64,000 nt of DNA from positions 51,462,001 through 51,526,000 of the forward strand of contig OZ076409.1 in the NCBI GenBank assembly GCA_964187785.1, given 5' to 3'. Positions 19,538 to 43,603 of this stretch are shown in pieces. Positions within the stretch are counted from its first letter, which is position 1. Each line of letters begins with the position of its first letter. Source of the DNA: Amphiscolops sp. MND2022 (Eukaryota). The notes under the pieces were generated by a model. That model had not been told where the DNA came from, made no database searches, and worked only from the letters and a program-made list of their open reading frames with translations. A program made the translations under genes and the position numbers.

Positions 19538-20789
19538 ATTTTTCGAAGTCGAAAATCGAGAAAGACTGTCATTCGAACATCGAGAATGATTTTGTCGAGA
19601 TCTCGACAACTCTTGAATTCATTTCCTGATATGTGTCTGTCGTCCATTTAAATATGGTACCGAATGTAGTCACTCTTTTGGGGTTACTGCTTTTGCATTA
19701 GACCGGTATTCAACATTTTTCTGTTGCACAATATTCTCATCCAACAATATGTTCTATATCAGGCTCTGCGCTACTAAATTGTAGGTCTAGAAATTTTTTA
19801 AATGAACAAAACTATTACAATTAATGCTAATAAAGCCAAAATCTGGAATTTAGAATCGATTCAAAACCCTACAAGCATCGCGAATCGAAAGTGGAATTGA
19901 CTGGTGGTTTTAGACGGTCTGAAGAATTGAAGTTGGGATGGAATGGCAAATAATTGAATATGACTCAATTACGTGGAAACGAAACCGAAATCCCGTCTCG
20001 AAGTACTGTGTAATGATGTTTTCGAAACAGATTTTGACAACATAGCAAAGATGTAGTTTAGATGTCAACTTTTCCTGGACGCAGGTAGTTTATCTCCAGT
20101 ATGTTCTCGACTAATTTCCCTTTGGTTCTCTCTGTCACTGATAAAAATCCTTCTTCTGAGGTTTCTGTTTAAACACCGATGGCACTCGCAATTCTGCCGC
20201 TTCCTTTAAGGCGGTTAAAACCTTGAGAAAACAAACACTTTGAGAAAGGAACATTGAGAAAACCTAAACTTTCTTTCTGGCACGACATATTCAACAAATC
20301 CCTCACACCCCTTCCATCAAACAACAATACGCCTTGCACAGTTGCAGACATGATTGAAATCCTGAAAAAAACTCAAAATATCTGTCATCGGTATAGTTCA
20401 CTGTCAGTGGACGTTCGGTAGCATTTTGACAACGGACATAGGTGTGGATATTTTCAAGACTGGAATAAAAATAATCGAAGTCAGGAAACATTAGATATCG
20501 AGGGAGAAAACAACGATCCCAAAATGCTTGCTGATCTATCCGAACTACATCCCTCAGATCGCCTTGAAACCATCATAACTTATCTGAAGACTAATTCACT
20601 CCCTGGATGGAGAAGATCAAAAGTTGAAAGAAAGTCTTAAAAGACGAGAAGAAAGGAACAAAGAAGATGAAATGAGAAAATCAATTAAGTGTAAGTCAAT
20701 TAGTTTTTGTTTTTCTGTACTTTGACGCATCGCTGAGTTCACTCTTGCGTATGCTGCTTGGTGTAGTTGCACAGAAGCTCCTTTTACTT

Positions 20790-23088
20790 ATCCTTGAAAA
20801 TTTCGCACTGTAAAGCCTGCAAGAGAAACATCAGCTCAAAAGACTTTGTCTCCCACTGTCTGGTATGTGGAACTAAAATGCAATTGAACACCACCTGCAC
20901 AGGTCTATCAAACGTTGCACTAATTGGCTACAAAGAACTAGATGGTCGTGTCGCCTTTCTCTGCGACAACTGGTACTATGTCGAAAGTAGAAGAAAAACT
21001 GAGAATTGGACACCAAACAATGTAGTAACAAACTGAATGAAAAACGCGATAGACTAGAGCGGAGTATTGAAAAATCTATGGACACTAGAGAAAAAACTGC
21101 TTCTGAAAAATGCGAAAGTCGCTTTTAAGAAGTTGTTAATACTGTGAATGAGAGAAAAGATTGAACTCAAAGTCGATGCTTTTCCGAAAAGAATTGACTC
21201 GAAGGGTCAGTCTGAGAAACATCACAAAATTTTATCAGGTTGTCAAGCTCTCGCGTACAGGGTCTACCTGAAGCCATGACCGAAAGTAACGAAGAAATCG
21301 ATATACTTGCAAACGAAAAATTGAAAGAGGTAACTTACGAAATAGGAGTTGAAGTCAAAATTGACAAAATTCAGAGACTAGAGAGTTTTGAGAGAGAACA
21401 CACTACTCCAAGATACACAATTGTCACACTGAGCAACAATTGGGACATGCGAATAGTTCTGGCCAAGAGCTCTGAAAAACTAACTAGAATGAAAGAGATG
21501 GGCATACACCTTCTTCCTGCACTTTCCGCCGAAGACGAGAAACGGGAAAACTTGTGCCTAAAAAACAGCGAGAACTCTTGCAAAACGGCATTCTGCTATC
21601 GCTGCTGAAAGTAAGAAACTTCCATTTATTTTTGTACGACAGAAACAATGAGTTGGAACGCATTCGGTCGACGGAGATTGCTTGGCTATCAAACTTACAT
21701 TGCATACTAATCAAGACACGAAGTTTGATTGATACCGAGCGAAGTATTAAATTAGCAACTGCGATTAGTATTAGTCCTTTCGAGGCACTGTGTTTGACAG
21801 AAACATGGATCGTTGCAAATGTGAATGATGCTGAACTATACCTCAATAACTTCAAAAAATTCGCAATGGAAAGAGAACCCACGAAAACCGGTGCTTCAAA
21901 TCATTGTGGAGTACTATTTGCTATCAACAAACACATGCCGGTTTCGAAATTGAACATCAAACTTCAATTGTGTTGCGTAGTTGCGTACTTGTTCAATTGG
22001 AAACGCCAATTCCCATATGCACTTTTTATCATCCTCCAAAAAAGTGTCCATACAGATACACAACTGCCGGTTTTACTCTTTTGACTACTTTTTTGCTTCT
22101 TCATAAGCACACGTCAATTATACTATGCCAAGATTTAGGTTTTCCCACAATCTAATTGGAACGCAAATCAGAACACGAATTGGCAAGAAAATGATATGCT
22201 AATAACATTGGAACAGCCCAACGCCGAAAAGATTGTACATGTTCCAACATGTGGCAGAAACATCCTGTTTGTGGTCAATGCCCATTTTGTCTGCGCAGAA
22301 ATCTATGTAGACACTAGATTTGAAAATGCATGACTTCTCAAACCATAAGCTATTAGCCATGAAAAAGCCAATATTTGAATGCTACTACAGTTTCGGATCA
22401 GCTGATTACGATGCAATTCAAGAAAAATTAAAAACAAGAACATTTCAACAAGTGTGTCATATCAACGTTAACAGGATGAAATTGAATACTGCAACAGTAT
22501 AATAGATCAATTTGTACCGGGAAGAACAGGACATCGACAGAGCTCACCCATTTGGAAGTCCTCGAACACCTCCAATCTTTTGAAACACCTCCAAGCTCAG
22601 CGTGAGCTGTACAAAGCAAAACCGACTTCTTACAGAAAACAGAAGTGAAAGGAGCTGAAAAAGACTTTACTAGAAGAAGCTGAACGTGACAAATCCGAAT
22701 ACCAAAAAGTTTGTTCTGAACCGAAATACCATCTTCTTTTTCAAACATTTCAAGTCTATGAATAAAACTGCCAAGATTCCAGACAAACTAAGACTTGGCG
22801 AGGAAACTGTCTCGAATGTTTAGGAGAAGGTTGAGTTATTCAACCGTTTCTTCAAATCGGCCTTTTCCCTCAACTCTTCTGCTAAGTCAGTAGTTTTAAA
22901 TCCGAACCACGACCAAGAGCCTACACTCACAAACTTTTCCAAATTGAAGAAAAGTATCACGTTGGTTCTTGAGAATGCAGATATTACCAAATCTAGAGGA
23001 CATGAAGCGAAACCTGCTGATTTTTTTTTCAAAAAATAGCTAAACCAAGGAGTCACCATCTGCATCTGATATTTAAAGCGATCAAGCG
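20790..23088 (+). mobile_element. Decayed CR1/L2-like LINE (PHD-finger ORF1 and APE endonuclease), cut by the assembly gap
   Basis: CKAC..CLVC..C..LCDN PHD remnant; RVQGLPE..PRYTIVTL ORF1 motif; APE motifs RSL, LCLTETW, GVLFAIN, YHPP, DLGFPTI, SNH. Multiple disruptions. Confidence 0.8.
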
Positions 23089-23288
23089 NNNNNNNNNNNN
23101 NNNNNNNNNNNNNNNNNNNNNNNNNNNNNNNNNNNNNNNNNNNNNNNNNNNNNNNNNNNNNNNNNNNNNNNNNNNNNNNNNNNNNNNNNNNNNNNNNNNN
23201 NNNNNNNNNNNNNNNNNNNNNNNNNNNNNNNNNNNNNNNNNNNNNNNNNNNNNNNNNNNNNNNNNNNNNNNNNNNNNNNNNNNNNNNN
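23089..23288. other. Assembly gap (200 N)
   Basis: Run of N. Confidence 1.
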
Positions 23289-24139
23289 AATTGGTCAACT
23301 TCTCGCAACTCGGACAGATTTCTAGCAATAATAGGGAAAAAAAAATTTGCAAATGGACAGATTTCTAGCAATAAAAGGGAAAAATAAAAATTTTTGCAAA
23401 ATGTTTGAAAAAGCTCCAAAACTGTTTCAGAAAGCAGTTTGTCCCTTGTAGTGTTAAAGTTTGGTGAAAGGGTTTAAAATAAAACTCGGCTTCATTATTT
23501 CTTTTGCAGTTTGTATGAACTCCTCCTATTTTACACAACATGTTATTCTACTGAGTAACCATTATTTCTCGACTTTTTTCTAATTCTTCGACTTACTTAG
23601 ATGTTTTCAAATTTGTCAGCAATTGCTACTGATGCCATAGAAACCTAGAGAAAACATCTGAGGCATGATATCCAAGGTAAAAAAAGAGCCAGGATTTTAA
23701 AACATGCGTTTCATACAAGTAAAGGCAGTTGAAAATGTTTCGGAAATTATGACGAAAGGAATAAAGTTTACAAAAAAACAAAATGAGAACTATTTTACCA
23801 TTTTAAAAAAAGTCTATCACGTTGACTCAAACATTCTTGTGATGCAATCATATAATTCCTTTGCAAATTCAATATAGTAAAACTGTAAAAGTTTTATATT
23901 CATAATACGATTACCGCCCATCATAAATTAAGTTTTTTTAATATAGTCAATCTAACTATCTAAGTCATGATATTCAAAGTAAAAAGTTGTCAGGATTTTA
24001 AAACAAGCATTTCATACGGGTAAAAGCTTTTAAAATGTTCAGGAAAGATATGAACAAAATTTTCGAGAATGAAAATGAGAACAGTTTTCAACATTAAAAA
24101 AGTTCTAGCAATTTTGTTGAATAATGTTGAATAAAAATC

Positions 24140-25480
24140 ACTGCCTCGGGAACTTCTTGTTTACGTTGATCCAGGCAGCCTTTACCTTGTGGTATATCTT
24201 GTGGGCAGACACTTTTCTCAATTGCGGTTGTAATTCCGTCAAATTAGCTTCAACTTCTGACTTTTGGATTGTCGGTAGTGCCATATGGAAAAAACTGCAT
24301 GCTATTTTTTCTTTCTCTGTCCAAGGCTTTTTAGTACTTATGAATTGTTTCGTTCTTTAATATATAATATTCGTTTTCTCTCTAAAACGGCAGGGGTATT
24401 CGAGGTTTTCGGGGTTTTCGGTGTTTTTGGTGTTTTTGGGGTTTGCGGGGTTCGCGGAAAATCAATACAGTCATCGAGGCTGTTGTCTGAAATGTCCTCG
24501 TCCATGCCGTCGTCGTCTTCTTCTTCTTCTTCAGCTTTCACCCTCTTGCTGAGGGTGCGCTCTCCTCCCGTCTGGTTCTGCAGGCGCGGAGGTGTCGAGC
24601 CAGGATTATGGCTGCAACTGGATATTCGCATTGAGGGCATGGGACACATCTGACCATGTATTTTCTGGACTGTGGTGCTTCGGGGGCGGAAGGGCAACAC
24701 TTCTTCCCATGTCTTGCGTAGTTTGCTGACTGGATTAATTTTCCGCACTTGCTGCACTGGGTCGAGGACCCGACTTTTTTTCTCCTTGGCATCTTTTTTG
24801 GTGGTTTTTGAGCTTGTTTTCGAATTTGAACTCGGTTTGACATTTTCCGCAATTAAATGATGTGGTCGCTTGGCGGTGCATGTGTTTGATGTGGATGCTT
24901 AATCCTCCCGCGGTTCTACAGATCTTCTGGCATTCAGGGCATGTAAGGTCTCTCCGGGTGATTGTCATGTTCCTGAGCGTGTCCTGAGCATTTTCTCTGT
25001 TTCTGTTTCCTCGGCTAGTTTCCCACTTTGCTAGGTGGTCGTTCCGTTTCCGGAATATTTCTTCCCACGTTTGTGGTTGGCCATGAGGACATCTAGATTT
25101 GTGGGGTCAATTCCCGCTTCCTTCACATTCTCTCTTCTTCTTTCCAAGGATCTTTAGTATTTCTGAGTGTTTTCATGCTTTTAATGAATAATATTCGTTT
25201 TTTCTCTGAAGTGGCAGGTGTGGTCGAGGTTTTCGGAGTTTTCGGTGTCTTCGGGATTTGCGGGGTTTGCTGGGTTCGCGGAAAATCAATGTTGTCATCG
25301 AGGCTGTTGTCTGAATTGTCGTCGTCCTTGTCGTCGTCGTCGATGCCGTCGTCGTCGACGTCTTTGTCGTCTTCCAGATTCCTGGCACGCTTTATTGCCG
25401 ATCTGCTTACGTCATGGGTTGAATTCAAGGACGTCCGTTGGTAGTTTCTTGTCTCGGAGTTTCTCTGACGACCTCCTCCT
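24140..25480 (-). pseudogene. Frameshifted C2H2/C2HC zinc-finger protein with a duplicated acidic/TPKT block and Myb-like W motif
   Basis: CPECQK..HIKHMH, CGKC..HQKRC, CSKC..HGKKC and CPQC..HLRAC in shifting frames. The block DDxIDFPRT-(TPK)n-RIL-PW occurs twice (24320-24530 and 25130-25380). Confidence 0.65.
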
Positions 25481-25663
25481 CAGTGCCCTCTTCTTCCTCC
25501 TGCATTTGCTCAGGCTCCTCTGTCACTGTCCGCAGTGTGTTGCTGTATATATTCAATACCGAAATGGTCGGCTTCAGTGACTCCTAAAATCATTAACACA
25601 TTGTGTGAACAAGAAGTAAATTACACAATACGTTAAACACACAAGTTTTGTTTAAAAAATGTT

Positions 25664-26475
25664 CTAAGCAAGAAAATATCCAAGTGAATAAAAATATTCG
25701 ATATAATTACTCTGATAGAGTTTACTGGCCGTGGTCTCTGATTGTGCGGTTTGGGCTAAATGTGCGTCTTTGTGGTTTTGAGACAGTTCCAGCCCGGTCA
25801 TGTGCATCTCCCAGAACCTTCGTACTGGGTATGCATTAAACCGCACCAGGTTTGGATCGTCCTGGAACAGTTCTGTGAAAGTGTCGCAGATTAAATAGGA
25901 CATTTTGGTCTGCTGCCGGGACTTGGTGTTGGGGAACATGAGGGAAGGTATTGTGGGGTACTCGCTCATCATCTTTTCCCTCATTTCGTCCAAGAACGTG
26001 ATCTGGTCTGCCTCAATCATGACAGCAACGTCATAGTATTTCGCAGTCTTGTGGTCGCTGGTTTCATAGACGTGTCCAGTTTTCTAGTGGGAGTCGAAGC
26101 ACTCCCACGTCACGTTCAATATGGGACCAGGCCTGACGTTGAGGCTACATTGAAGAAGAAAGAAGCTGAGAGCTTTCAGTGTACTCGTCGACAATTTTTC
26201 CTTTTTCAAGTCCCGTTCCAGCATCTCAATGACTTGCTGCTGTCTCTTTGTGGCTTGGTTGACTGGGCACGCGGGACAAGTTGTCTTTCTTGCTTTCTTT
26301 GGAAAAACGGGTGCAAACTTTCTTGATGCATCTCTCAGCGCCTTCTGCATAGTCGAAAAGGAGAATTCCTTTTTCAATTGCCTTTTCTCGTATGTGTGGC
26401 AGTAGTCAAGGAAAACCTTATAGTGCGACATGTACTAATTTGTTTTGCTCGGTTCCCATTGTCTTCTGAGGTCAA
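25664..26475 (-). pseudogene. Tyrosine recombinase (Crypton/PLV-type) with one in-frame stop in the catalytic domain
   Basis: ORFs 26084-26431 and 25664-26020 are in the same frame across a TAG: LNVRPGPILNVT..SDHKTAKYY..LMFPN..NAYPVRRFW..QTAQSETTASKLY, giving the R, K, xxR, (H>Q)S..TA..Y catalytic pattern. Confidence 0.75.
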
Positions 26476-27084
26476 CTGTAGGAAAAAAATGCAAAACTCA
26501 GAACATTTTTTGACCAAAAGGTCTATATGTAGTGGGTCGATTCTGAAGACCATGTTGATTTAGGGATATGGCCAGTTGGACAGTTTTTCAAGTTTTTCCT
26601 AGTTGCAACTTGTCATCGATTTATTTTAATTTATTTCATTAAATATTTATAAAGAAAACAAGTAAATACCTTTCAATAGCTGGAATCAGCGCTTTGGGCT
26701 CTCTTTACCCAAACGTGTCCCCAAAAAAACGAAAGGAAGCTCTTCAGCAAGTCTCGTCCTCGCTCGTCGCAGACGCCTTCGTCAGACAAAACCCTTTGCC
26801 TCTTTCTCTAAATTCGTGGTTGGTGAATACAGTCACCAGAGACGTATGACTCTCCCTCAGCAAATGGCTATTGCGCAACTTCGTGCGCAATTCAAGTGCA
26901 AAAGATCTAGAACCGGCAACTAAGACCTTAGTATTCTAGCGTTTACCACTAACTACCTAATAAACAATTTGTGTGTTTGAAAACCATCGTATGTAAAAAC
27001 TAAATAAAATAATGTTTGTTTATGACAAGAACAAAAAAACCCTTTATCATTATAAGTTTTGTATTTTCATACCGACCTCGGGTT

Positions 27085-27815
27085 TTCAAAAAGTCCTTCA
27101 AGTTTCTAAGGTCCTTCTCAGTCAGCAAACGCCTTGAATTGATGCTCCTTCAAATCCGTCTTTCTTTTGCAAATAAAGTTTAAAAAGTTTGTTCGTCCCA
27201 TTTCTAGCCGTTCATTTCCGTGTTCCGTGCAAGAGTAAACACAAGGCTCTGAACAAGCAAAAATTGTCTTTTGAAGGTTGTCTTGTGTTTTGTTCAAATG
27301 TGAGGCAGTTGACAGTTCGATTTTTCAGTAGAGGCTCAGACAGCACAGCTTCTTTACAACCCATCGGAATATCTCTGAGTAGCGCTGCAAATATTGTCAC
27401 ATTTGTCAGTTTAAGGAATCTCCACTTTGTGTTGACTCGTTTGACTCAATGACATCTTTCCCAGCAAGCATTTTTCAATGTGTACTAAGTCGTCCCGAGT
27501 ACTAAGCAATTCGGACTTCTCCAACAGAATATTATTCTCGTGTGCATACAAATAACAACAGCTAGCGTCTTCGATATTTTTCAAAACAAAGCTAAAAGCC
27601 AGATTAATTCTAGCTGCACATTTTAGTTGTTGAAACACATAGTTCAGCTTTGAAATGACTTTTTGTAGCACTGAGAGAGTCCAATGCAAAATTGAAAACT
27701 CTGTGACAACATTTTCCAACTGCGAATCAACAAGGAAATGTTCACAGGCATGTAGCTCTTCCTTGAGATTGTCATCATCGATCCCTGTGGTGGTATTAGG
27801 AACGTTAGTTGTACA
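27085..27815 (-). pseudogene. N-terminal region of a Maverick protein-primed DNA polymerase B (catalytic core absent)
   Basis: LKCAARINLAFSFVLKNIED..YAHENN..LLE and DNFCLFRALCLLLHG resemble Maverick pPolB N-terminal motifs. Divergent orientation to the capsid module. Confidence 0.55.
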
Positions 27816-29429
27816 TTTCCCAAATGAAATCTGACGCGTTGTAAAAACTTTACTTCAAAATCAAACACGTTGCAAAAATTTAACTCTAAAATTTGACAAG
27901 ACGAACAAATTTTACTTTGAAGTCTGACAAGACAAAAATTTTACTTCAAAATCTGACAAGACGTGAACAATTTTGCTTCAAAATCTGTCTTTTTAATAAT
28001 GTACCGCTAATGGAAAGTTTGTCGTTTCGACGGAGTGAAATGGGTAAAAACCTGTCTTTTTAAAAATAAAAACACCTTCAAAATCTGTATTTTTAATTTT
28101 TTCATCTCGTGTAAAATCTGACGCGCTGTATAAATATTGCAAAAAATCTGACATGTTGTTAACTTTTCGCTTTGAAATCTGACACGTAATAATTTCACTT
28201 TAAAATCTGACAACAAAGTGTTTTTCTTGCAAAAGTGTGCATTTTAATTTCACTCAAGTATGAGCAAGTGTTTCGACCTTCGTGACATAGTATGGGATGA
28301 AGTTTGAACTATTGGAGCTTTCTTGTTGCTCTTACTAGCAGTCGTTGCAACCGCAGCTCTCATTGGTCTATTTGTTGTCGTGGTGAGACTTCCTATCAAT
28401 CTCTACAATCCACTTTTTGCTGAAAAAAAAACAGCGGTTAGTTTACAAATATTTAACTTTGAAAAATACTAAATTACTCTCATAATTTCTGTAAACATCT
28501 ACAAAAACAATCTATAATTTTTATCATTCCTCATTCAATTTTAGTCTTTAACTTAATCAATGCTTCCTGCAAAAACTGATCCACCCGTTTGTGTTGAAAT
28601 TGTCTTTTGCAACGAACTCAGTAAATGTCTCTTGTTTTTATTTACGCAACAGCCTCTTTTTTGCTATACTCAGCATTCTTTCAACCGTCTTGTGGCGTTG
28701 ATTGAATCGTGCAGCTCGTTCAATGTTTTCAAATACTTGTCCATTTTTGGTAACAATCTTTCCATCAAAGCGATACTGGAATAATGTATAAAGGCAGTCG
28801 ACCAACTGATATGTAAATTAAAAAGTGTCCCATTTTTGCATCAACTCATTATTATCCTTCTCTGCAAAGAGCAAAATGTGTTATTTAAAATTGAGAACGA
28901 TACATATGGAATTTTCGTGTTGAGCAACGCAATAGTCTTTGCTGACAAGATACTTTTCATATGTGTTTACAGAAGTGTGTACACTCTTTCTAGAGTATAC
29001 AGAGTAAAAGCTTGGAACAACTTGCATCATCACAGCAGCCATCGGAGCGTTGAGTTTTTGTTGAACAAACTGAATCTGAAAAGATGGAAGTGTTACCCTA
29101 AAAGGAATAGTCACGTGACTTCCATAAAAAAGAATTGCAGGAAAGATGACCTAATAAGGAAAGATGACATAAGAATTTTGAATGACAACACAAACATTAT
29201 CTTAAAAGGAAATGTCTTCCTCTTATGGAAAACGAGGTGTAAACATTTCCAAAAATGGAATAGTCACGTGACCAAAGTATTATAAAAGTATATTTTCAGT
29301 TCCAACCATAATTTCATTTTGAATCGGTAAACAAAAGTTGCTTGTTCCAGAACACAACACCGACTCTGACGATTATTACGATCGACCCTACTTTACCCAG
29401 AACTCACTCTTGTCAAGAAGCAGCCGCGA

Positions 29430-30480
29430 AATGGAATCTGCAATGAATGCAACTTCAGACAAATCAGTTTGCACAGACTTTGTGGACTTTGGCAAGCACC
29501 AAGACAGATTTGGACGCTTTTCGTGGACCAAAAATGAGAAGAATTACTCGGAAGTGCACTTCAAAGTCTTTTAAAAAGACATGCCAACGAGTTCAAGCGA
29601 TATCAATGTGTTTCGCTGGGTCAATACGACTTTAGGCAGTTCTTGCGGTTTCGAAATCAAATGATTGTTGCTGCCGACAACTTAACAAAGGAGGAAAATT
29701 TGCCTTACATCAATGTTGTTGGACTATCCAGAGACCCTGACGGACAACTGAAGCACGCTCACAAGGTTATTGAGGTTGCAGATAGGGCCAAGCGCAAAGT
29801 GTGTGTTACATTGCTGCTCAACAAAGAGGACAAACCCGAAACATCCTACCCGCAGATACGACTCTTTACACGCAGGACGGTGGAAGAAATATTTCAACAA
29901 CTTGTCTATGTGAACTATAAAATTGATGAATTTTAAAAATTTACTAGATGTAATGAAGTCTGTTTGTGATCAAGTGTTTGATAACAAACATCTTTGTAAT
30001 ATTGTTTGAATGAATCGCAAACTTTTTTATTACAACTTTCAGTTTTTCAATCAAGCTAGTGAGAATGAGTTGGAACATTAGAGAAAATAGAAACTTGTTT
30101 CTTAGGTTGAAAACAAAGGTGGGACTTTATCATTTTGTCATTCGAACACCAAAATCTTCTCCCACAAAATTTACTCTAACAATAGCCGAATTGCAACAAT
30201 TACTAGAGCTCGAACAAAACGAGGACGAAATTTCTTGCCCTGAATGGACAATTTACAATGGTAACAAACATTTTGCGTAGGAATTCAAACCGATAAAGAC
30301 CAAGTACACATTGTAGTGTATCGTTATCGCAATAATACCTACCTCAAGGATACTGAAATTGAATTAAAGCTAGCAGAGTACAAGCCGCTACTTGCTATAC
30401 GGTTGTATCTTTTAGGCTACTTGGATACATTATACAAGCAATGCATCGTATTGGATGAATCCACAATCCATAATTGAGTT
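29430..30480 (+). pseudogene. Two disrupted Maverick accessory ORFs, possibly PC4-like ssDNA-binding folds
   Basis: Repeated beta-strands plus helix pattern (YSEVHFKVF; QIRLFTRR..YVNYKIDEF; FTLTIAELQQL). TATAAAAG at 29281. Confidence 0.35.
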
Positions 30481-31705
30481 GTTCCCTGCCCGAAACGGAC
30501 GTACTGTTTCTAGTCAACGTATTTCGTTTTTAATCAGGGTTGAAGCTCCGCTTTACAAAGAATATTGTACAAAAAATGCTATATCTTAGCGCATGACATT
30601 TATTGGACGAGAACATTTCACTCCACGAATTGGACCACGAATTTCCTTTTGAGGAATTAATTAGTTATTCATACAAAATTCTCCGTTTTGCCAAAGTGTT
30701 CAGACTACATGCAATACTACATGACGCTGCCGGCGCTGTTTATTTGCACAAAGGCAAAGGACCGGGATACTGTTAAATGATTGGTCGAGGTCCAAACTCG
30801 TGTTTATTGAGTCACGTGACTGGACTTTTGTATTGTCTCTACTTGAAATTGTTTGCTCCCTCCATTTTCAATTTTGTAGACTTTTAGTCAGGTCGCTTAT
30901 TGTGTTGGAATCTGAACTTGCGGAAAAAGTGTAGTCAAGGAATTGGGTGTTTATATTGATGGACAAGTATTTGTGTATTCCTTTAAACCACCCAAAAATT
31001 ATCAACCAACACATCAAACACTCTGATGTACCCAAAACTTGCACAAAATTGATTGGAAAAGTGATTCACTGGACTATAGCTGTATCAACACCATGTTGGA
31101 TGAATTGCGACAAAACAGAACCGAGTATTTTGCAAAAGGATTGGAAAAGTTTACATTTTTGAGCACATTACTGGGTAAGTTTGTGAAAAACTTGGATGAC
31201 TATGGTTGCCCCAAGATTCAACGTTTAAACACTGACTGGTTGGCACTAACTATCCCTACAGACACAAAATCAATATACACTGGGCTGAGCGGAAAGAATA
31301 GCATTTGGAGTATGGACTGTGCAACATTTCAATTTGTAAATTTATTGTACGTCTTTGTATTCCTCATTCATATTATTTTAAAATTTTTTGTTCAACTGAA
31401 ATTTTTTCCATTGGAGATTCATTCTTACAGATACACTCTCACCTAGCAAGCTAGATGACAGAGACTAACCTCAACTTAGAAAAAATTGTTTTTGACGGAA
31501 ATAACTGTGAACGAAAATCAAGGACGTTCGTGGGACAATCCTACTCAAGATCAATAATTGTGTTTTTGTCCCAGTTTTTTGTTATTTTGCTGATATTTTT
31601 GCGTAGCTTTTAGAAAATTCATTGGGCAACAAGTAGTGAAGAATCTACAGTGTGTGTTGGAATTTTGTGTAGCGCAGCAGGAGTTATTGTTCCAACGCGG
31701 AGACT

Positions 31706-32413
31706 ATGACCAATTGATATCCACTAAAAACTGCGTCTTCCTTTCTATGGTTGGACAGAGTGAATCTCGGAACAACCGATTTACGAGTGGTTAACTAATG
31801 GAACTTTTCAGCCCAATTATGACAAGATTTACTTTTTTACCAATATTATCAATCACTACACGACAAAATGGAAAAAGAAATTGATTATTTCGAGTTTGTC
31901 AAGGGAGTGATTTTTGAATTGAATAATTCCTTGAAAAACAACGATACAAAATATCTCCTCATTTTTGACGATTCTTGTGAGGAAGTGTGCACTTCCAAAG
32001 AATTTGTCAAAAATGCCACGGCTGGAAGACACCGCGGACTTAGCACTTTATACATTAAACAGAACTTGTTTCACAAGAGCACTCTCGGACGCGATATTGA
32101 GCTACAAATTACACACATTGCATTGTTCAAGTCGCCTCGGGTTTTTCTGCAGATAAATACGCTTAGTATTCAACTAGGTCTAGGTTCCTCTCTAGTGGAT
32201 TTGTACAGAGATGCAATGTCTGTTCTTTTTGGTCATTTGCTAATTGATTTATCGCCGCGAAGAGACGATAGATTACGTTACTGCACAAATAGTGGAAAGA
32301 TTCCTTCAAAATTTTACGTACCAGAGAGTTTGAAGCATTTGACAACTTTGGACGATGAGCACACAAAATCTCTCTATTCTCCAATCATTTTCCAATCATT
32401 TTCCCGCAAGTGA
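31706..32413 (+). pseudogene. A32/FtsK-like genome-packaging ATPase
   Basis: Degenerate Walker A (MVGQSESR), Walker B LLIFDD, GRHRGLSTLYIKQNLF, IALFKSPR, LLIDL. 5' frameshift. Confidence 0.88.
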
Positions 32414-33079
32414 AAAAGTCAATTTCTCAAATCGTGTCCAAACGAGTTTATTCGATTTATAGGCGAGTGCATAGTAAACATACTTCGAGGAAACTTGCAA
32501 AGCGTAAAAAGACATCATGTTATTAAGTAAAAACGAGAGTTGAACTTACTCTCTTTGAAGCGGACTACATGGAAACAGAGATGAGATGTCTTGACGTCAG
32601 AGAGAGGTTTACAACTGGTTGATACCATTACGCCGTTTGTGATTATTCACTTGTCTTGATATGCAACAGTTTGTCCTTGTACCTGCTTCACTTCTCAACA
32701 AACTAAAAACAACAAAGTCCACGACGTTAAAAGTGGACCTATCCAAATATCACTCTCAACAAACTCCTACGTCCCAAGTTGATTCGCTGAAAAAGAATAT
32801 AAACAAAATGTGGTTTACCAAGGAGACTCCTTGGTTGACAAACTTTTAGCATCCCCACGCATACAGTTCTCTCTCTAACACTATCGTGCTAGACGGTACA
32901 GATACTAGAGAATTGTTGCAAGATTTTGTTCAACATTTGCGTAGAAAGAACGCTGACGTACCCGACATTTACTGTACTTTACTGGACGCAGCCGACATTT
33001 CTTCTAGTATAGCGCTCAACCAGAATGCCAAAGCAAAAGAGAGATTAAACTGGTTCCCTTTCATCTGAGCGACAAAATC

Positions 33080-33959
33080 TTCAAAGACTATATACACATG
33101 GTCCTGCAACATATTGCTCTGCGAGATCTGGCAAAGGCTAGCAAGCTACCGTTTTCCAAGGTTCGACTTTTTTTACATTCAAAAGACTCCTATACAAACT
33201 GTACACTTACAACGCAAGTTTAGACGTAAACGAGCATTTGCTAGATACAAGAATGAACCTTGGTGTATGGACTTGGCATATGTTGATAAACTATCAAAGG
33301 ATAACAGAGAAAAAGAGTACTTGCTAGTTCGCCAGGACGTGTTTGACAAAACAATAGACGTAAGAGGATTGAAAACAAAACACTCTAAAGAGGCACTTAT
33401 AGTCATTGCGCAAATGATTACCAAGCGGAAAAGACCACAACAAATTTGGGTTGACAAGGGAAAAGAATTTGCTTGTGAATATAAAAACTTTTTTTGCAAC
33501 AGAGAATGTATACAGATTTTTTCAGCAATGAGTGAAACAAAAGCAGCATTCGCCGAGAGAGCCATTCGTTCATTGAAAAACGTATTGTATCGCTACATTG
33601 AAGATTATGGATACAAGTATATTCACAAGTTGTCTCAATTTGTTACAACGCTGAATACGAGAAGGAATTGATCAATAGATATGAAGCCGTGCAGTGTTAA
33701 GAACTCTGAGTTTTTGGCTGTGCTATACAGTAAGCCAATCAGAGACTTTAACAAACCAAAGTTCGAAGTGGAATTCCGCGTCCGAATTTGCAAGCAAGAA
33801 TCACCGTTCAGAAAAGGATACAAGCCGCAGCTTACAAACGATATTTTCAAAATTATTGTACTTGCTACATGCAAACCACCCACATATAACTTACAAGATG
33901 AACAAGGTGAAGTTATTAAAGGCAAGTTTTATGAAAAGGAGTTGATTAGAGTCATTTAG
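33080..33959 (+). pseudogene. rve (DDE) integrase of Maverick
   Basis: WCMDLA, YLLVRQDVF, IWVDKGKEF, KAAFAERAIRSLK, FRKGYKPQ, IKGKFYEKEL. Stop at 33669. Confidence 0.9.
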
Positions 33960-33961
33960 AT

Positions 33962-34767
33962 ATGGATTCATTTACAAAAGTGTTGGTTTCTAATGCGTCA
34001 TCTGGACTGTTTCCTGACAATAGAATCAGTTCTTTTACAATTTTTTTTTACCTGATCAAGTCAATTTGGATGGTCAATGGGAGGTTGCAATTTGGGGAAT
34101 TTCCTACCCCTCAATGTACCAGAATGTTACAGATGGGAAATTTTTATTTTTTGACGCAATTTACTCCAAGATGACAACTGCCTACTACTTATAACCTGGG
34201 TTGTAATCTTCCGTACCCGACATTGTGGAAGCATGGAATTTGCTTATGCAAGGCAGAAACAATCACAATGAAAATTGCATTACTGTTAAAGAATCTCATC
34301 GCACGCAAAAAATTGAACATTCACTCATTAGTGACGACTCGAGCCTAGTCATTTTCAGTTCAGACTTGGGAAATACATTTGGTGGCGATGTTGGAGACAA
34401 CAAGGGAGTTTTGATGCGACGTAAGGGACCTCATGAGCCAAAGTTTGCGTACGATATTGTTTGTATTCATTCGCTAATGATTTACACTGATTTTGCGGAG
34501 TACAACATTGTTGGAGACACAAAAGCACCCCTATTACGTTGCTTCCTTCTCATTTACAAGCTGAAATCCGGAGACGTAATCACTAATGGACAAAACATAA
34601 ATTACCAAACTTTTAGTAACCTTCAATTTCGTCGACTACTGAAAAATCCCTTTCATAGTATACATATTGATCTGAGGGACACCTCGGGTGAAAAGACTTC
34701 ATTTGTCTCTGTTGGAATCACAAGTCTTGTGCTAATGTTTAGAAATGTTTTTGACATTCATTACTAA
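33962..34767 (+). pseudogene. Minor capsid protein (penton-like)
   Basis: LVSNASSGLFPDNRISSFT N-terminus; MIYTDFAEYNIVGDTKAPLLR and IHIDLRDTSG C-terminal motifs. Frameshifted. Confidence 0.85.
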
Positions 34768-34783
34768 CGAAAAACACTGCGAA

Positions 34784-35145
34784 ATGGTTGCCTCAAGAGA
34801 ACTTGAACTACCGTATTATAGAGGAGTGACAAGGCAACGCTGAAGAGGATTTGGAGCAATTGCTCAAGTTTTTGGGAGAACCGCAGTTCCTTTTGTTTAA
34901 AAAAATTTAACGTCCCAGCTGCACGAAGTGTTGGAGCTGACTTGTTGGAGTTTGCTGTCTCTGAAATGGCAGAAGTATTTAGTGGAAAGAAAAATTTGAA
35001 CTCGCCTGTAACAAGTGTTGTTAAAAAGACATTGAGAAAACAACTAGGTGGCGGTAGCAAGAGAACGCGCAGATTCATTCCTACAAAATCCACCAACATA
35101 AATAGTCGCTTGCGCAGAGACATTTTAACAAAACTTTCACGCTAA
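34784..35145 (+). pseudogene. Small basic Maverick core/membrane-active protein
   Basis: YYRGVTRQR*RGFGAIAQVFGRTAVP and KQLGGG motifs, located between penton and hexon. Confidence 0.55.
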
Positions 35146-35151
35146 ACATGA

Positions 35152-35446
35152 ATGCACAAAACAATTTTCGGTTACCAAATTTTTGTGACCGTTTCTGGTA
35201 GTGGTGGCGGTAAAGTGACAGTTGTCGATGACGTACTTTCCTCGCATGAACAACAAATTTATCCTACAACGTCATTGGATGAAAACAGTATCGAGTTTGA
35301 ATTTCAAACTGATCGCAACAATAACACTGATTTGCGTCAAACGTATTTGTCTTTGGTACTGAAATTGGTGAAGCATCGTTGATTTTATTCATAGAAAAAA
35401 GAAGTCAAAAAGGAACACAATGAGGCAGAAGATGAAAAACTGATGC

Positions 35447-35487
<41 letters not shown>

Positions 35488-36519
35488 TTCCCTTAATTAC
35501 CCATGTGAACAACATCATGCGCTCTATTTTCTTCAATGCGGAAGATTAAACATAAAATCAGCAAGTTTACAATTCAGATGGACTTTATGCTCATAAATTT
35601 TACATTTCCAACAGTTTTAAAGGAGCCATCTCTGAGTACAAGGGAGTGCTACATTGTGAAGTTATGACTTCGAAGCAAATCCAGAAGACGCCATGGATAA
35701 CCGCTTGGAGGATCCATTCTTTCCAAGAAGAATGAAAATTTTCTCCAGACCAAAAAGATTTATTTTGTGTGGTAAAATGGGTGTGGATTTTTTCACCACT
35801 TCAGAGCTATTGTACCCAAACATGAAAGTTAGAATCCGACTCATTAGAGCTCGACCCAATTTTTACATGATTAGTGACAATCCTTACGTTAGCCTTGGAA
35901 TTGTGGATTGTTCGCTTTATAATCGCCGTATTAAATTCGAAGACGCCACTCAAAGACGATTATCAGAAGAAGCGATATCATAGTGTACAGTCCTGTAGAA
36001 TACAACTACTTGGACACAATTGCCAAAACTTTTATCACCGCCCGAGAAAATCAATTTATACAAGAAAACACTTTCAATAGTGCACCCATCCGACTAATCG
36101 CCATAGCAACGAACACAAATTCTGCCTCTACTGGTTCTTTTACTGAAAATCCCTACTTGTATCAGCAGTTTGGATTGAGACACATTAGAGTACTGGGCGG
36201 GGGTCAATCTGTTGTTGACTATGACACGTCCGATAATTGCCGTCTCTATGTTACAACAAGGAGAGCAATGAGCTTTCATGACGATTTACCGTCAATCCCA
36301 ATTGCGAATTTCAAGGATCACTATGTGCTCTTGTTTGATTTGACATCAATGCAAGACACAACTGAACATAACCACTATCCGGAATTGATTGGCGAACAAT
36401 TGCGACTGGAACTCAACTTTAATGAAGCGCTCGAAAGTGTAACAGAAGTCATTATATTGGGTGAACGAATGTCGTCGGTTGCAGTCGACAAGTGTGGCGT
36501 TGTCGGTAAAAATACCTAA
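35152..36519 (+). pseudogene. Major capsid protein (double jelly-roll, hexon-like)
   Basis: IYPTTSLDENSIEFEF..DLRQTYLSL; LLYPNMKVRIRLIRARPNF; PIRLIAIA..TGSFTENPY; LFDLT; LRLELNF. Several frameshifts. Confidence 0.85.
35448..35483 (+). repeat. (GAC)12 microsatellite within the major capsid gene
   Basis: Direct observation. Confidence 0.95.
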
Positions 36520-36520
36520 A

Positions 36521-36946
36521 ATCGATGGCATTGCATTGCGACAGATTATTGATCGTTTTCCTCTCCTCAAGTATCGGTACATCGGCTCATTTCCTTCTGA
36601 TTGTGTCCCTAAGCTTCCAAATGATACATTTGCCATTGTCAATACTGAATCAAGTTACATGTCTGGCGAACACTGGGTAATGATTGCCATGTTTAAACAG
36701 CAATTGTGTTTTGCAGACTCTCTCGGTGGATCATGCATTTTTCTCAAGCAAGACTACCACAAAATGGTTCCAGTAAAGTTGCAGTCACCTTCTAGCGTTT
36801 GTGGATTCTATGCCATATATGCAGCTTTTCATCTCTTCAAGTTCCAGCAAGAGCAAATTACAGGATTTCACGACATTAATGTACTCTCTTATATTAGTAA
36901 TTATATGGAAACCATGCTAATTGTAAAGTGCAGTTTATACATGTGA
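36521..36946 (+). pseudogene. Adenain-like cysteine protease
   Basis: IVNT..GEHWV, FADSLG and LQ..SSVCGFY carry the H-D-Q-C catalytic residues. Frame is open but the start codon is lost. Confidence 0.88.
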
Positions 36947-37521
36947 TTGTAGTACATTTATACATTATATATTAGTTTTTTTGATCATTTAAACATGATT
37001 TTTTTTTCTCAACACATAGCAGTCAAGTAATTAGCGCAACCTCTATGGCGGATAAGTTATTCCCGTGGCGGATAAATTTTTGCAGTGGTGGATAAAATAT
37101 GACGCGGGCGGATAAAATATTGCCGGGGGGGGGTAAAATCTTTCTCGCGGGCGGCGGTTGGCAGCAGCCAAAAAGCTTTCCTACCCAAAATCTCAGTGCC
37201 CAAAATGTCGCACATTGCCGAAAAACCCCTATAACCTATCTTAAAACACTCCCGAAGCTATTCCCTATCTTTATACATTGAGCACATATTTATACATTAG
37301 CAAACAATCGGTTACAAACCTTTGAGTCAAGTCGTCAGCCAATCAGGAGCGAGCACGACCCGAGTAGGCAGCCAAAGGGTATACGCCCCAACTACACGAC
37401 AAACAATCGAACGAGTCCTGAGGGTGGAAGAGCCTTCTCGGCTATGGGCTCCAGTCAGCTCGCTATAGCCTATCTTAAAACATGTGGGTGTTCCACCTGA
37501 TCTGCTCACCATCTGTCTACT

Positions 37522-37715: not shown

Positions 37716-37982
37716 CTAAGACATGCTATCCGGCACATTTTGCGGACAACTGGCGAAAATTTTGCCTACAGCGATAAGACGAAGTCCACCATCGGGCTTT
37801 TTTAGCGCAATTAGTTTCGCACCAAAGAAGTACGGCAGCAGATCGAAAGGTAAATTTCCTTCGAGAATCACATTCGCAACATTTGTCAGGGCTCTGAGAA
37901 AAATCAGTCCAGTTTGCCCGTTCGATTTTGCAGACAAATCTTTCAAAACGTGGGTCGAAATGCCATCCAAAACTGCACTAGC

Positions 37983-38484
37983 AGGCTTCGGGCATTAAGT
38001 GCGATTTAATAAGTTCGAATTTGAACCAGTGCAATAAGTTCGAAAGGAGTAGTTTCGAGACACCAAGTTCGAAATTTCATATCGGGTTAAAACGGTTTAA
38101 ACTGGACATCCTTCACACAAGATCCTGAGAGCTCCACCGCCTAGAATCTAGAGGAATCTAAAACTGAAATGTGTGGCATAACCGGTGTATGCACGCTCGC
38201 CCTCACCGTCGCAAAGACCAGCTCCCACTACCATCGCTTCGCGAACTCTGTCCCCGCTAAGTCTTTGCTCCTGTTCGACCTCGCTTGGCAAGATGGGAAC
38301 ATAAGCAGCCCAAAGGGGCCGCGAGGCACTAGATGAAATGTGGAAGTATCAGAGGCACGTTTTCTAGTTAGTTCAAAATTCGAACACAGTGACTCGAACT
38401 TGTTCCGGTTTTTGGAAAATTCGAACTTAGTCAATTCGAAATTAAAACTTGAACTTATGCGTTCGAACTTATTACCGTGCCTCG
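37983..38484. mobile_element. Foldback-like element with AAGTTCGAA arms and the shared core (38171-38360, minus strand)
   Basis: CTAGC duplicated at 37978-37982 and 38485-38489; removal restores colinearity with the other CRE copy. Inverted arrays AAGTTCGAA / TTCGAACTT. Confidence 0.8.
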
Positions 38485-38896
38485 CTAGCGTCGTTGGGAA
38501 AGGACATGAGAGCCTTGTGCACAAAGAACTCCGAAGTTGGAAAACAATCGATATCTGTGGGGTCCGGAAAAGAGGAAGTTCCCCTCTGCGGAAGTTTCAA
38601 CTCGAGTGCCGCGTAAGTGTCGACCATGATATCTGCAATCTTGTCGCCTACTGCCATTCTGATTCCTGCCTTAACATTACCTTCGTCCTAATTAGTTCAT
38701 ATGGAACGCAGTCGTCGATATTACTCGCATTTCTGTTGCGGCTTTCTGTCGCATTTCAATTTTTCTCAATGACACCTTCCCTAATACGCTTGTTGATATC
38801 TGCACTTAGTGATTACCTCTGGCGTTTATCTCGAGGTGGTTTTTTCTTAAAAAACCAACTTAGTTAGGAGAGCAATTGGCATCACAAGGCGATATT

Positions 38897-39554: not shown

Positions 39555-40344
39555 ATATTCGACGGGGTTTCACAAATATCATTCATTTTGGGTATCAAGT
39601 TTTCAGCTAGGGGGATCCGTGAATTTTTATGAACTCTTTTCAAGTGAACGCTTGAATTAAAAGGCTTCTACCTGAAGTACTACTTCGCAGCACTGGACCT
39701 GCTTTTAATTTTTCTCCTTTTTCTCTTTTCCTCTCTCAGATGACATAGATCGTCGCCAATAGTTGTGCCCCGTAGGTCATCATGTAGGGGTGAGATGACA
39801 CACACCCGTGATCTACAATAAACGATAAAGGACTGCTACCACTACACATGCCAGCCACTATCTCACTAGAGGACTACAGACTGCACTTCCTTCAAAACTT
39901 TTATTCTAAAAACCAAGAAACTCCAATAAACCACAAAGCTTTTGGCTACTGAACTATTATTCTAAATTTACTCCAGTTACAAATTGTTAGACTCAACATT
40001 CTCCCGCAAATAGGGGCTTAATCTCACTAGCCTAATTGTTGTTATAGACTTGTTGGATAGCTTCAGAGATGGCAATGATTTGAGTTTGAGACAACTGGAC
40101 AACATCTCTGACGCTGTTTTGTTGGTTTGTCGCTGCACTTGGTCTGAAAGAACCATCACAACCCGGTGAGATAATTCCATTTTTATTTCATTTTAACAAT
40201 TCAAGGTTTTGTTCTATATACGGATGCTTCACTGTTGTGATTGTATTTTGGGGAGATTGGCATACACCCAAATGTGGTATTCCTGCAAATGGTTAGGTTT
40301 CGAGGTTGAGTTGTGATGAAAAACAACGAAACCTGCATCGCTCC

Positions 40345-42273
40345 GAAGTGTCTGAACGACTGCGTTCCATTTGCACTAAATTAGACGAAGGTAATGTTAC
40401 GGCCGGAATCAGAATGGCAGTAGGCGACGACAAGATTGCAGATTTCACGGTCGACAACTACGCTGCCCTTAAGTTGAAACATCCGCAGAGGGAAACTTGC
40501 TCTGTTCCGGACCCCACAGATATCGATTGTTTTTCAACCTCGGAGTTTTTCGTCCACAAGGCTCTTTTGTCCTTCCCCAACGGCTCTACTGCAGGGTTGG
40601 ATGGCATTTCGCCCCAAATTTTGGACGATTTGACTGCCAAGTCGAACGGGCAAACTGGACTGAATTTTCTCAGAGCCTTAACAAATCTTGTGAATGTGAT
40701 TCTCGAAGGAAAAGTTTCTTTCGAACTTCGGCCGTACTTCTTCGGTGCGAAACTAATTGCGCTAAAAAAGCCCGATGAAGGACTTCGTCCTATCGCTGTA
40801 GGCAATACTTTCCGCCGATTGTCCGCAAAATGTGCCGGATACCACGTCTTCGAATCACGTAAAACAAGATATGGAAATCGACAAGTAGGTGTAGGTACCA
40901 AAAGGGGGCGCTGAATTGGCCTCACATGTTCTCCGTTGTTTGATAAAAAACCCTCAGCCCAAAGAAAACGTAATTTTGATAATTGACTTTAAAAAGGCTT
41001 TCAATTCGATAAACCGGCAATTCATGCTAAAGAAAGTTTTTGAAATACACCCTGAAATTTATAAGTATTCACACTCTGCGTACAGTCAGCCAAGTTTTCT
41101 TTTTTACGGTGATTCAGTAATCAAATCTTGTGAAGGGACCCAGCAAGGAGATCCTGAGTCTCCAGCTTTGCTTTCGGATTCCATTCAGGATCTGATTGAC
41201 AGTTTGGAGTCGAAAATAAACTTATGGTACCTTGACGATGGAAATTTAAGTGATGATTACCGAACCGTTTTGAAAGATCTCAAAAAATTTGTTGAAGCGG
41301 AAAGAACGCTGGGACTCGAAATTAAACCCACGAAAAGTTTAATTGTTTTCCCTGGTGACATCACTGAAAAACGAAAATCGACAATTTTAGCATCTTTCCA
41401 AAAACTTTGCCCCGGGATCAAAACACCAAAGAAATATGAACTTATCATTCTTGGTTCACCGCTCGGTCAAAAATCACAAGCAGACCTATTGGAAAAGAAA
41501 ATTAATGAACTGGAAAAAGTTAACGAGATTGTTGAAAAACTAGATGCGCACTATGGTTTTTTATGTTGAAAAATTGCTTCAGTTTGCCAAAGTTGTTGTA
41601 CTTCCTGAGAACCAGTACATGTTTTAATCATCCAGCTCTCTTGGAGAAATATGACAAAACCGTGCGCGACGGACTTTCCAAAGTGTGTAACGTGAACTTC
41701 GACGATATTTCGAGTACTCAGCTGGCTCTGCCTGCTGAGATGGGTGGTCTTGGGGTTTCATCCGCATCATTATTAGCACTTCCCGCCTTTTTGGCCTCAG
41801 CTTTTGGTGCGAGTGATTTTCTCACGATGATTTTCTCGGAAACATTCGAAGATGTTTCGTTTACAAAAACGCTTGAGAAGTGGTTGAGTTTGACGAATGA
41901 ACAGGAAAGTCCCCTCGATGGAACTCAGAAAACTTGGACACAACCTGTCTACGTCAAAACCGCCCAAGATTTGATTTCTAGAATGGATGACAAACGTTCG
42001 AAAGTTTTCAACGCTCATCAAGGCAAATTCGGGTCTCAATGGCTGAACGTCGTTCCTTGCAAGAACCTAGGCCTGAAACTTGATGATCAGCAACTTCGAA
42101 TTTCAATTGGTTTGCGTCTCGGTGCCAACATCTGCGTTGCGCATACGTGCCACTGTGGTAAAAGAGTTGAACGGGACGGTTTACACGGTCTTTCTTGCAC
42201 CAAGAGTGCTGGTCGCTTCTCACGTCATGCTACTCTCAATTCCCTCATAAAGCAGACGTTGGGATCTCTGGAC
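40345..42273 (+). mobile_element. CRE-clade RLE non-LTR retrotransposon, RT part (5'-truncated, frameshifted)
   Basis: LRPIAVGNTFRRL, IDFKKAFNS, GTQQGDP, WYLDDG, LGSPLG, LP..MGGLG, CHCG..GLHGLSC..RH. Two frameshifts (~40910 and ~41560). Confidence 0.9.
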
Positions 42274-42856
42274 GGGTACAAGACATATTGCTTAATTCCA
42301 TATTGCTCAATGCCATATTGCCTAATTTTGTGGACATATTGCTTAATAATTTTTAAGCAATATGGATAATGCCATATTGCTCAATTTTGTGGACATATTG
42401 CTTAATAATTTTAAGGCAATATGGATGTGTTTTCACATTGAGTAATGAGTGATGAATCGAGTAATGCGTCGGATCTAAGTGACACTTATAACACGTGCCT
42501 CGGATATGTCCCCATTTCCTCTGGTGGCCCGCGGCCCCTTGGGGCCGCTCATATTCCCATTTTGCTAAGCGAGGTTGAACAGGAGCAAAGACCTAGCGGG
42601 AACGGAGATCGCGAAGCGATCGTAGTGGGAGCTGGTCTTTGCGTCGGTGAGGGCGAGCGTGCATACATCGCATATGCCCCACATAATATTTTCGCTTTCA
42701 GAACACATATTAGATCATAAAGGCGTTAGACCTAAGTATTTTAGATAAAAATAGATCTGAAAGTTAGACCTACCGTTGAATCTAATTCCATACGACACAT
42801 ATCATACTCAGAACACATATTAGATCATAAGACCTATTAGATCATATTAGACCTAA

Positions 42857-43569
42857 TGTAACGTCCACCAGTCAAGGTCAAAAATTTCAAAAATTCGAAG
42901 AATACCCAAAAAGTGTGCGAATCAAAATGGCCGACCTAGCAGGTCGTTAAAATCGAAAGGGAAGCACACACAACGCAAAAAGACCCCCCCCCAGACCACA
43001 GAGAAGACCGAAAAGCAGCGAAAGAAGATATTCAGAAGCAGAAATTAGCCAATACCCTAGTGTTGTGCCATCAAAACCGGAAAATCGCAAGAATGAGCCG
43101 GAAAAGGGATGAAGAAGAAGGTGCGATTTTTGCGTGAGTTGAACCCAAGGCTCAAAACTCGCTGAGAACTGTTCAGAATGCCTCCCCAGTGCTGTTTTAT
43201 AGTATTTTGGCAGATTTTCAGGTGTTTGTTAATGGTAAAACTGGAAGGTGTTGATTTTAGACGTTATTCTTTTAATTGAGATGTGCTCTGACTAAACCCC
43301 TGTTTTCAGACCTCGGAGGTATGTAGGATCGCAGGAAGCCTTCAGGACCGTTTTTACGTGCTTGTGGGACGTGTCCGGACTTTGAGTGTGCCGGCACGTC
43401 GCCACGGAGCTCTAATATGAGGAGTCTCCTCGGCGTCTTGGAAAAGTCCCTACAGAGACCATTTGGGACTTAAAACTAATGTTTAGGTTGTTGTAAGACA
43501 CTGGTCTCTTGTTAAGGCAACCTGGGCATTGTCCCGGTTCTGGAATGTAGCTGTTAGCTTGACGTTACA
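42857..43569 (+). repeat. 5' LTR
   Basis: TG...CA with a 9-bp terminal inverted repeat. About 9 substitutions versus the 3' LTR, counted by eye. Confidence 0.97.
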
Positions 43570-43585
43570 TCTAGGATAGTTTTTA

Positions 43586-43603
43586 TGGCGCCCCACAAGG
43601 GAC
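43586..43603 (+). promoter_or_regulatory. Candidate primer-binding site (tRNA-Lys-like), displaced from the LTR
   Basis: TGGCGCCCCACAAGGGAC matches the tRNA-Lys3 PBS TGGCGCCCGAACAGGGAC at 15/18 positions but lies 16 nt downstream of the LTR. Confidence 0.4.

Follow-up and report, generated by a model that had tools for sequence, protein, structure and literature searches.

A one-off chimera of three dead elements in Amphiscolops, and the recombinase-encoding transposon family behind one of them

Parts of a gene for a tyrosine recombinase (YR) lie directly beside the remains of a Maverick/Polinton in the genome of Amphiscolops sp. MND2022, and this arrangement raises the question of whether some Mavericks carry two integrases, with a YR module in place of the polymerase core. 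The window analyzed here is a stretch of 64,000 nucleotides (G000:C1:51462001-51526000) within a repeat-rich genome of 1.07 Gb. An initial annotation, made from the letters of this stretch, had offered two explanations: a dual-integrase Maverick, or a new Crypton-like element inserted in, or fused to, a Maverick. We find that three dead elements, namely a Maverick, a YR transposon and a long interspersed nuclear element (LINE), are combined here in a chimera that is a single occurrence, and that the YR segment comes from a DNA transposon of 11-13.5 kb, of which it is the 3′ third, and is not a component of the Maverick.

The junction and its two halves

The Maverick and the YR transposon meet at 27126/27127. 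Similarity to 12 of the 13 other same-family copies of the YR element ends exactly at 27126, and these 12 share further coding-exon sequence beyond it. The position is in the middle of an exon, 8-10 kb inside the transposon from its true left end, so that the join is a later breakpoint and not a transposon end. The interrupted exon, which contains a zinc finger, extends 5′ past 27126 in each of the 12 other copies that include this region. On the Maverick side, the pPolB frame runs into a stop codon one codon past the join, and the YR exon is in a different frame, so that no fused frame exists. In a junction search that scored 40 of 75 candidates, the window alone among the 41 matches listed spans the join. 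The features of the locus are as follows, with the basis of the assignment in brackets.

23277-24137, minus strand: 3′ non-coding end of the YR transposon (copy comparison)
24138-24517, minus strand: second copy of a ~214 bp duplication, conserved C-terminal helical domain and stop codon (alignment with copies)
24520-25127, minus strand: 5′-truncated LINE 3′ end with C2H2/C2HC fingers and a GAA-repeat tail, in the last exon (genomic matches)
25128-25583, minus strand: first part of the last exon, an acidic linker rich in Pro and Thr, with the first copy of the ~214 bp duplication
25584-25710, minus strand: intron 2, GT-AG (copy alignment)
25711-26477, minus strand: YR core exon, inactivated (alignment with relatives)
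26478-26669, minus strand: intron 1 in the register of the relatives, its acceptor altered in the window copy (copy alignment)
26670-26955, 5′ limit approximate, minus strand: exon upstream of the YR core, with stops (reading frames, copy comparison)
27054-27126, minus strand: remaining stub of the YR transposon's zinc-finger exon (which runs on 5′ in other copies)
27125-27126, no strand assigned: breakpoint, a 2-base microhomology common to both parent sequences (alignment of both parents)
27127-27854, minus strand: pPolB N-terminal remnant, frameshifted and truncated at the junction (tblastn, reading frames)
27127-37521, no strand assigned: decayed Maverick/Polinton (comparison with other copies)

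The Maverick half keeps ATPase, rve integrase, capsid-like and protease pieces on the plus strand together with its right terminus at 37521, and lacks its left ~3.9 kb, which held most of pPolB and the left terminus. The initial annotation was thus correct that this Maverick already carries an rve integrase. It had also placed a pPolB-like N-terminus on the minus strand, and this remnant is present, but ends at 27127 and not at ~27085. The polB gene is frameshifted here, and in other Maverick copies it runs on in long open frames. The window copy is 84% identical to these other copies, which reach 99.7-100% among themselves. The DNA to the left of the Maverick holds the YR segment, an assembly gap of 200 N (23077-23276) and remnants of LINEs. 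Neither the left Maverick terminus, which was sought beyond the YR, nor the sequence lost from the two elements (8-10 kb from the transposon, ~3.9 kb from the Maverick) was found in the window or within 30 kb on each side. An open reading frame (ORF) at 20303-20572, considered as a continuation of pPolB, has no support by tblastn. A second Maverick family, which is distant (28-40% protein identity), lies 8-14 kb past the right edge of the window (L064:8382-8936, L065:320-4029).

Including the window, the YR element is represented by 14 same-family DNA copies. Maverick DNA or protein is absent from ~20 kb around each of the other 13 (shorter at contig ends), and Maverick genes are likewise absent near 20 loci of other YR families, chosen from 154 YR matches. 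The other Mavericks (11 of 11) continue into the polymerase past the junction point, without YR DNA within 1.5 kb, and no YR is found in three Mavericks examined over 10 kb on each side. When 133 distinct YR loci, drawn from the best 150 matches, are compared with 150 listed Maverick ATPase genes, a single locus lies within 20 kb of such a gene. This is the window itself, and 0.75 are expected by chance. The initial annotation had asked whether other YR copies are linked to Maverick genes and enclosed by Maverick termini, and had said that copies never linked would point to chance adjacency; none of those compared is linked.

These observations decide between the explanations of the join. A dual-integrase Maverick lineage, with the YR module replacing the polymerase core, would fit the direct adjacency of YR and Maverick on the same strand, and some Polinton-like viruses have a YR instead of rve, according to the available text of PMC12220804. 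However, none of the 33 other YR loci is linked to a Maverick and co-location is at chance level; the junction is unique among the matches listed, the YR half has its own ends elsewhere, no left Maverick terminus lies beyond the YR, and both halves are broken. We therefore reject this explanation, to which we give almost no credence. Hardly more believable, in spite of the exact halt of similarity to 12 of 13 copies at 27126, is a short (~3.8 kb) Crypton that was cleanly inserted in pPolB and had its natural end there: an end at 27126 is ruled out by the sequence that 12 copies share past it, since their coding exons continue and the true left end is 8-10 kb further, and the remaining pPolB is not on the far side. 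The converse arrangement, in which a Maverick entered the YR element and pushed its 5′ part to the right, has no support, as SET and JmjC sequences (see below) are absent from the window and the 30 kb beyond.

A join made by the assembler between two repeats is improbable, though less so than the dual-integrase Maverick or the short Crypton. It would be in keeping with the 200-N gaps at the ends of several elements, one of them 3.8 kb from the junction. At the junction itself there is no N gap, and the two sequences overlap by 2 bases only. Moreover, the two halves are of similar age, each being ~15% diverged from its nearest listed relatives (83-85%, and in one case 80%, identity for the YR half; 84% for the Maverick half), so that a near-identical repeat that would invite a mis-join is absent. 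Among young copies, identity is 97-100% in both families. The simplest reading is that an old deletion at a microhomology, between adjacent or nested dead insertions, likely explains the junction. The deletion would have removed the observed 8-10 kb of transposon and ~3.9 kb of Maverick by way of the two shared bases, and the LINE 3′ end came to lie in the YR last exon with its ~214 bp duplication. We hold this history of the junction with strong confidence. The alternative of a Crypton-like element fused to a Maverick was right in outline, but not as an insertion, since 27126 is mid-exon.

The recombinase fragment and its LINE

The YR is on the same strand as the pPolB remnant, and the R, K, xxRR and Y motifs that had been pointed out are present, but Gln stands in place of the conserved box II His. 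The core exon also contains two stops and two frameshifting gaps, and the window YR is dead. Two candidate introns had been proposed for it. The donor of intron 1 (26669) and intron 2 (now 25710-25584) are conserved across copies, but the suggested acceptor at 26476 is not that of the relatives; theirs maps to 26478, where the sequence is altered here, and the AG at 26476, 2 bases further downstream, would break the frame. Both exon joins are read through in one frame by a paralog family that lacks the introns (L106, L108, L110; ~50% identical), which confirms both introns by homology. Within intron 1, from 26621 on, the left-end sequence of the element is repeated over ~70 bp. The segment described as Myb-like corresponds, by resemblance, to a conserved helical domain; it has no Pfam Myb match and one weak Atlas look-alike (0.77). 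Downstream of the gene, the 3′ non-coding end enters the 200-N gap just before the expected right inverted repeat.

The C2H2 segment, which had been taken for a module of the YR gene, is the 3′ end of a LINE. It has 38 genomic matches (the best 87-94% identical), it is missing from all 13 other YR copies, and elsewhere it is preceded by a reverse transcriptase (RVT_1, E 8e-8). The insertion is bounded by the ~214 bp duplication of the YR last exon (24304-24517 and 25128-25341), whose two copies are 85% alike. Another copy of the LINE is bounded by a 75 bp duplication (L149:1210-1282 and 2101-2175), the one long duplication among eight other copies; at most of these loci the sequence does not contain both ends. 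A literature search for LINE target duplications of such length found nothing.

By modeled fold and catalytic residues, the YR belongs to the tyrosine recombinase superfamily. The initial annotation had named a Phage_integrase-fold hit as a check; the window's own pieces have no match to the Phage_integrase Pfam family, but an intact relative is predicted to fold as a YR. An uninterrupted relative (L028) has 104 homologs among cluster representatives, and the Phage_integrase Pfam match occurs in three of 60 aligned YR homologs. The structure model of the intact relative, built on the homolog alignment, has a pLDDT (predicted local distance difference test score) of 95.7, and its nearest PDB structures by Foldseek are all YRs (XerA, Tn1549 Int and XerH, with Cre lower; probability 1.0, best E 0.016). 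A model of a phage (viral) integrase matches the YR fold at E 3e-4. The catalytic residues are conserved across the 60 aligned rows as R in 55, K in 54, R in 50, H in 45 and Y in 42 (gaps scored as misses), and the second His position is N or T.

The remainder of the window contains unrelated elements. A Gypsy-type long terminal repeat (LTR) retrotransposon occupies 42856-57464, with terminal repeats that are 98% identical and an open gag-pol frame of 2444 codons; its extra frames at 53710-55209 (499 aa) and 55210-55935 (241 aa) are without a Pfam match. A non-LTR retrotransposon with an RVT_1 match and a Cys/His-rich C-terminus lies at 40297-42369, and a second copy of it, inverted and fragmented, lies immediately right of the Maverick terminus (37716-38687).

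The parent transposon family and its SET and JmjC genes

The parent element is a dispersed DNA transposon of 11-13.5 kb whose copies are sharply bounded, with inverted ends of 17-20 bp located in (TA)n or TA-rich DNA; such flanks are present at all seven right ends and four intact left ends seen. Both ends are present in the C10 copy, which is 11,137 bp long. The C1 copy is ~13.5 kb, with its right end in a gap, and an internally deleted copy (C5d) measures 5.8 kb. One strand carries a single spliced gene with, in order, SET, zinc-finger, YR and acidic segments and a helical tail, and a zinc finger-JmjC gene diverges from it on the opposite strand. The subfamily of C3 and C1 also has a 180 bp tandem array. 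The YR family is young, its copies being 97-99.7% identical, and diverse, with 154 YR matches.

The best PDB sequence match of the SET domain is KMT5B (SUV4-20), at E 4e-14, and its NHSC motif is present in all 12 same-family copies scanned. The JmjC domain best matches KDM7A, KDM2A and PHF8 (E 3e-7 to 2e-6) and keeps the HxD..H motifs, and its Pfam JmjC match, on one exon, is weak (E 0.095). Among the 13 other same-family copies, SET is found in 12 and the JmjC core in ten. At the 20 loci of other families, SET precedes the YR in 19, of which 14 are SUV4-20-like and five are of a second type whose best match is weak (KMT5A at E 1e-5, against 3e-5 for EZH2). Related YRs are thus preceded by SET8-like domains (L124, L126, L130, L138, L144) or SUV4-20-like ones (L028, L106-L120), and the SET8-like group is bordered by (TAG)n. 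A JmjC gene lies inside the microsatellite-bounded unit at five of the 20 loci, in three families, with a sixth match outside its unit; counting the parent family, the gene occurs in four families. SET and YR share one open frame at L106, L124 and L126, and in the unrelated record P0059. A search that started from the YR exon gave no longer, fused homologs, which is weak evidence; the fusions came to light in later searches.

Where synonymous divergence (dS) is measurable, the ratio of nonsynonymous to synonymous change (dN/dS) is 0.12-0.32 for YR, 0.22-0.39 for SET and 0.22-0.41 for JmjC. These are rough pairwise counts against one copy, with dead copies included, and they indicate that all three are under purifying selection. 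In the Atlas, proteins that resemble the SET-YR protein reach 0.93-0.95 in clusters rich in chordates and 0.87 in one rich in molluscs; these matches are leads only. Most loci of other families lie by microsatellites of TTA, TAG or TAGA repeats.

Several further variants of the element are visible in the genome. The C7 element (L116:2808 to L117:3188) is 10,381 bp long, with a YR protein 43-51% identical, the same right terminal motif and (TTA)n flanks. JmjC and YR point the same way in the L116 family and are divergent in the others. End-like sites of ~70 bp occur three times, at the left terminus, in YR intron 1 and, inverted, at the JmjC 5′ end (L018:5448, L028:4662, L029:647-752, window 26621). 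Precise excision of the SET module between such internal sites was considered and rejected, because the C5d deletion does not break there. At L126-L128, (TAG)n/(GTA)n arrays of 0.4-2.5 kb host several YR and other insertions. Gaps of 200 N at or near the right end affect six of the 14 copies (L015, L017, L024, L028, L032 and the window, 23077-23276), probably because of the flanking microsatellites. Tandem and partial duplications of the transposon are present at L019 and L017 (C1:22.158-22.187 Mb, 13.7 kb apart) and at L024; the last exon and right end are repeated in them, and they may be real or assembly-derived.

Known relatives, proposed mechanism and meaning

Among named groups, CryptonV is the best fit, a resemblance that is one of description and not of sequence placement against Repbase CryptonV proteins. 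It consists in an animal DNA transposon that encodes a YR but no reverse transcriptase and inserts in microsatellites, here (TA)n; some CryptonV families insert specifically in microsatellites (PMC8869645, available text). The group is also listed in the accessible parts of PMC4455052 and PMC5753468, and PMC13465017 gives its name only. The size of 11-13.5 kb, the SET fusion, the JmjC gene and the inverted ends go unmentioned in those parts of the CryptonV descriptions, and Repbase entries may have them. Classical Cryptons (CryptonF, A, I and S) share the YR-only transposase, the introns and a proposed circular intermediate, but, as far as the excerpts of PMC3212892 and PMC13465315 go, have no terminal inverted repeats and are flanked by direct repeats of 4-6 bp. 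The present elements have inverted ends of 17-20 bp, which rules out membership in these groups, and direct repeats are unreadable here owing to the (TA)n flanks. None of the 60 aligned YR homologs matches DUF3504 or GCR1_C, and DUF3504 is also absent from 37 full-length homologs; CryptonA was accordingly rejected.

Starships, as portrayed in the portions available of PMC13004909 and PMC13465315, are likewise DNA elements mobilized by a YR, with cargo genes and short inverted ends. They are, however, fungal giants with a DUF3435 captain at the 5′ end, whereas the present elements are animal and much smaller, encode a SET-fused YR in their 3′ part and carry fixed chromatin enzymes as cargo. There is no DUF3435 Pfam match, and a single Atlas look-alike scores 0.76, so Starship membership was rejected. 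No reverse transcriptase lies within the C3 copy according to its ORFs and Pfam matches, and the absence of a reverse transcriptase-RNase H gene excludes the YR retrotransposons of the DIRS/Ngaro type. A place as a Maverick component fails because the YR is neither enclosed by Maverick termini nor, at the loci compared, recurrently linked to Maverick genes. Polinton-like viruses that encode a YR also have it next to Polinton-type genes, but there it is recurrent (78% of one cluster in the accessible text of PMC12220804), compared with one broken locus here.

The cargo itself is most like KMT5B/C (SUV4-20), KMT5A (SET8) and KDM7/PHF8/KDM2, which are its best PDB sequence matches and whose motifs it keeps. 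It differs from these enzymes in that it is transposon-encoded, with SET fused to a recombinase and JmjC preceded by zinc-finger-like sequence, and in that its activity is predicted. Cryptons with SET or JmjC cargo were not described in the literature searched, which did not extend to Repbase Reports and most subscription papers; the part of PMC4738411 that was available holds nothing relevant. For Cryptons, excision in circular form has been proposed, and the sites at which YRs act consist of inverted repeats that enclose a short spacer (PMC3212892, in part).

By analogy, the YR of intact relatives would bind the inverted ends and excise the element as a circle, whose joined inverted ends would form the recombination site; the targets would be AT-rich microsatellites, with no target duplication, as proposed for Cryptons. 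We consider transposition of this circle type probable. The fused SET, a predicted H4K20 methyltransferase, may mark chromatin at YR-bound sites, and the JmjC protein, a predicted demethylase, may keep the element expressed by removing repressive methylation. Substrates of PHF8/KDM7 are H4K20me1 and H3K9me2, and the methylation state of H4K20 guides the choice of repair. For the chromatin role in this form the balance is nearly even, tipped slightly toward doubt.

Somewhat less probable still, but to be taken seriously, is that host histones are not the targets through which SET and JmjC help transposition, and that the two modify the element's own proteins or serve only as chromatin-binding modules. 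The enzyme activities are predicted from sequence, SET goes undetected at one of the 20 other-family loci, and JmjC is missing from the element at 15, so that many families can do without it; the assignment as SET8-like is also weak. Against this, the NHSC and HxD..H motifs are kept, selection is purifying, and both SET types match H4K20 enzymes best. A bolder proposal, which we regard as speculative and on balance unlikely, is a widespread animal lineage of microsatellite-targeting YR transposons with an H4K20 toolkit of their own, in which the writer fused to the recombinase has alternated between SUV4-20-like and SET8-like domains and a KDM7-like eraser is present in several families as well. 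Such an element would set methylation at its own ends, escape silencing and steer the repair of excision and integration sites, and the internal copies of its end, in the YR intron and at the JmjC 5′ end, might be bound by the YR and so control or reshuffle the modules.

Several points weigh against our account of the locus and its parent family, which we nevertheless consider very probable as a whole. The junction is known from the assembly, and, as the right end enters an assembly gap, the transposon may have lain either inside the Maverick or beside it. The genome searches scored top candidates only (147 of 827 for YR, 150 of 1308 for ATPase), and the lack of linkage between YR and Maverick holds for these. 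All Foldseek E-values against the PDB are above 0.001, and PDB sequence searches with the YR, single and profile, gave nothing meaningful. To the roughness of the dN/dS counts is added that the JmjC alignments are gap-rich and most of the distant families saturated. Lastly, the circles are inferred, the splicing is by homology and the enzyme activities are predicted.

The locus itself is ordinary transposon debris, and its analysis removes the false lead of a two-integrase Maverick. The interest lies in the parent family, in which a site-specific recombinase is joined to a predicted histone methyltransferase and accompanied by a predicted demethylase. Judged from their sequences, the SET and JmjC genes of the intact relatives likely help the element to stay active or to move. 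If active, the family would provide a microsatellite-targeting recombinase with a capacity of ~11-13 kb, and a direct, testable case of an animal transposon that rewrites its own chromatin marks.

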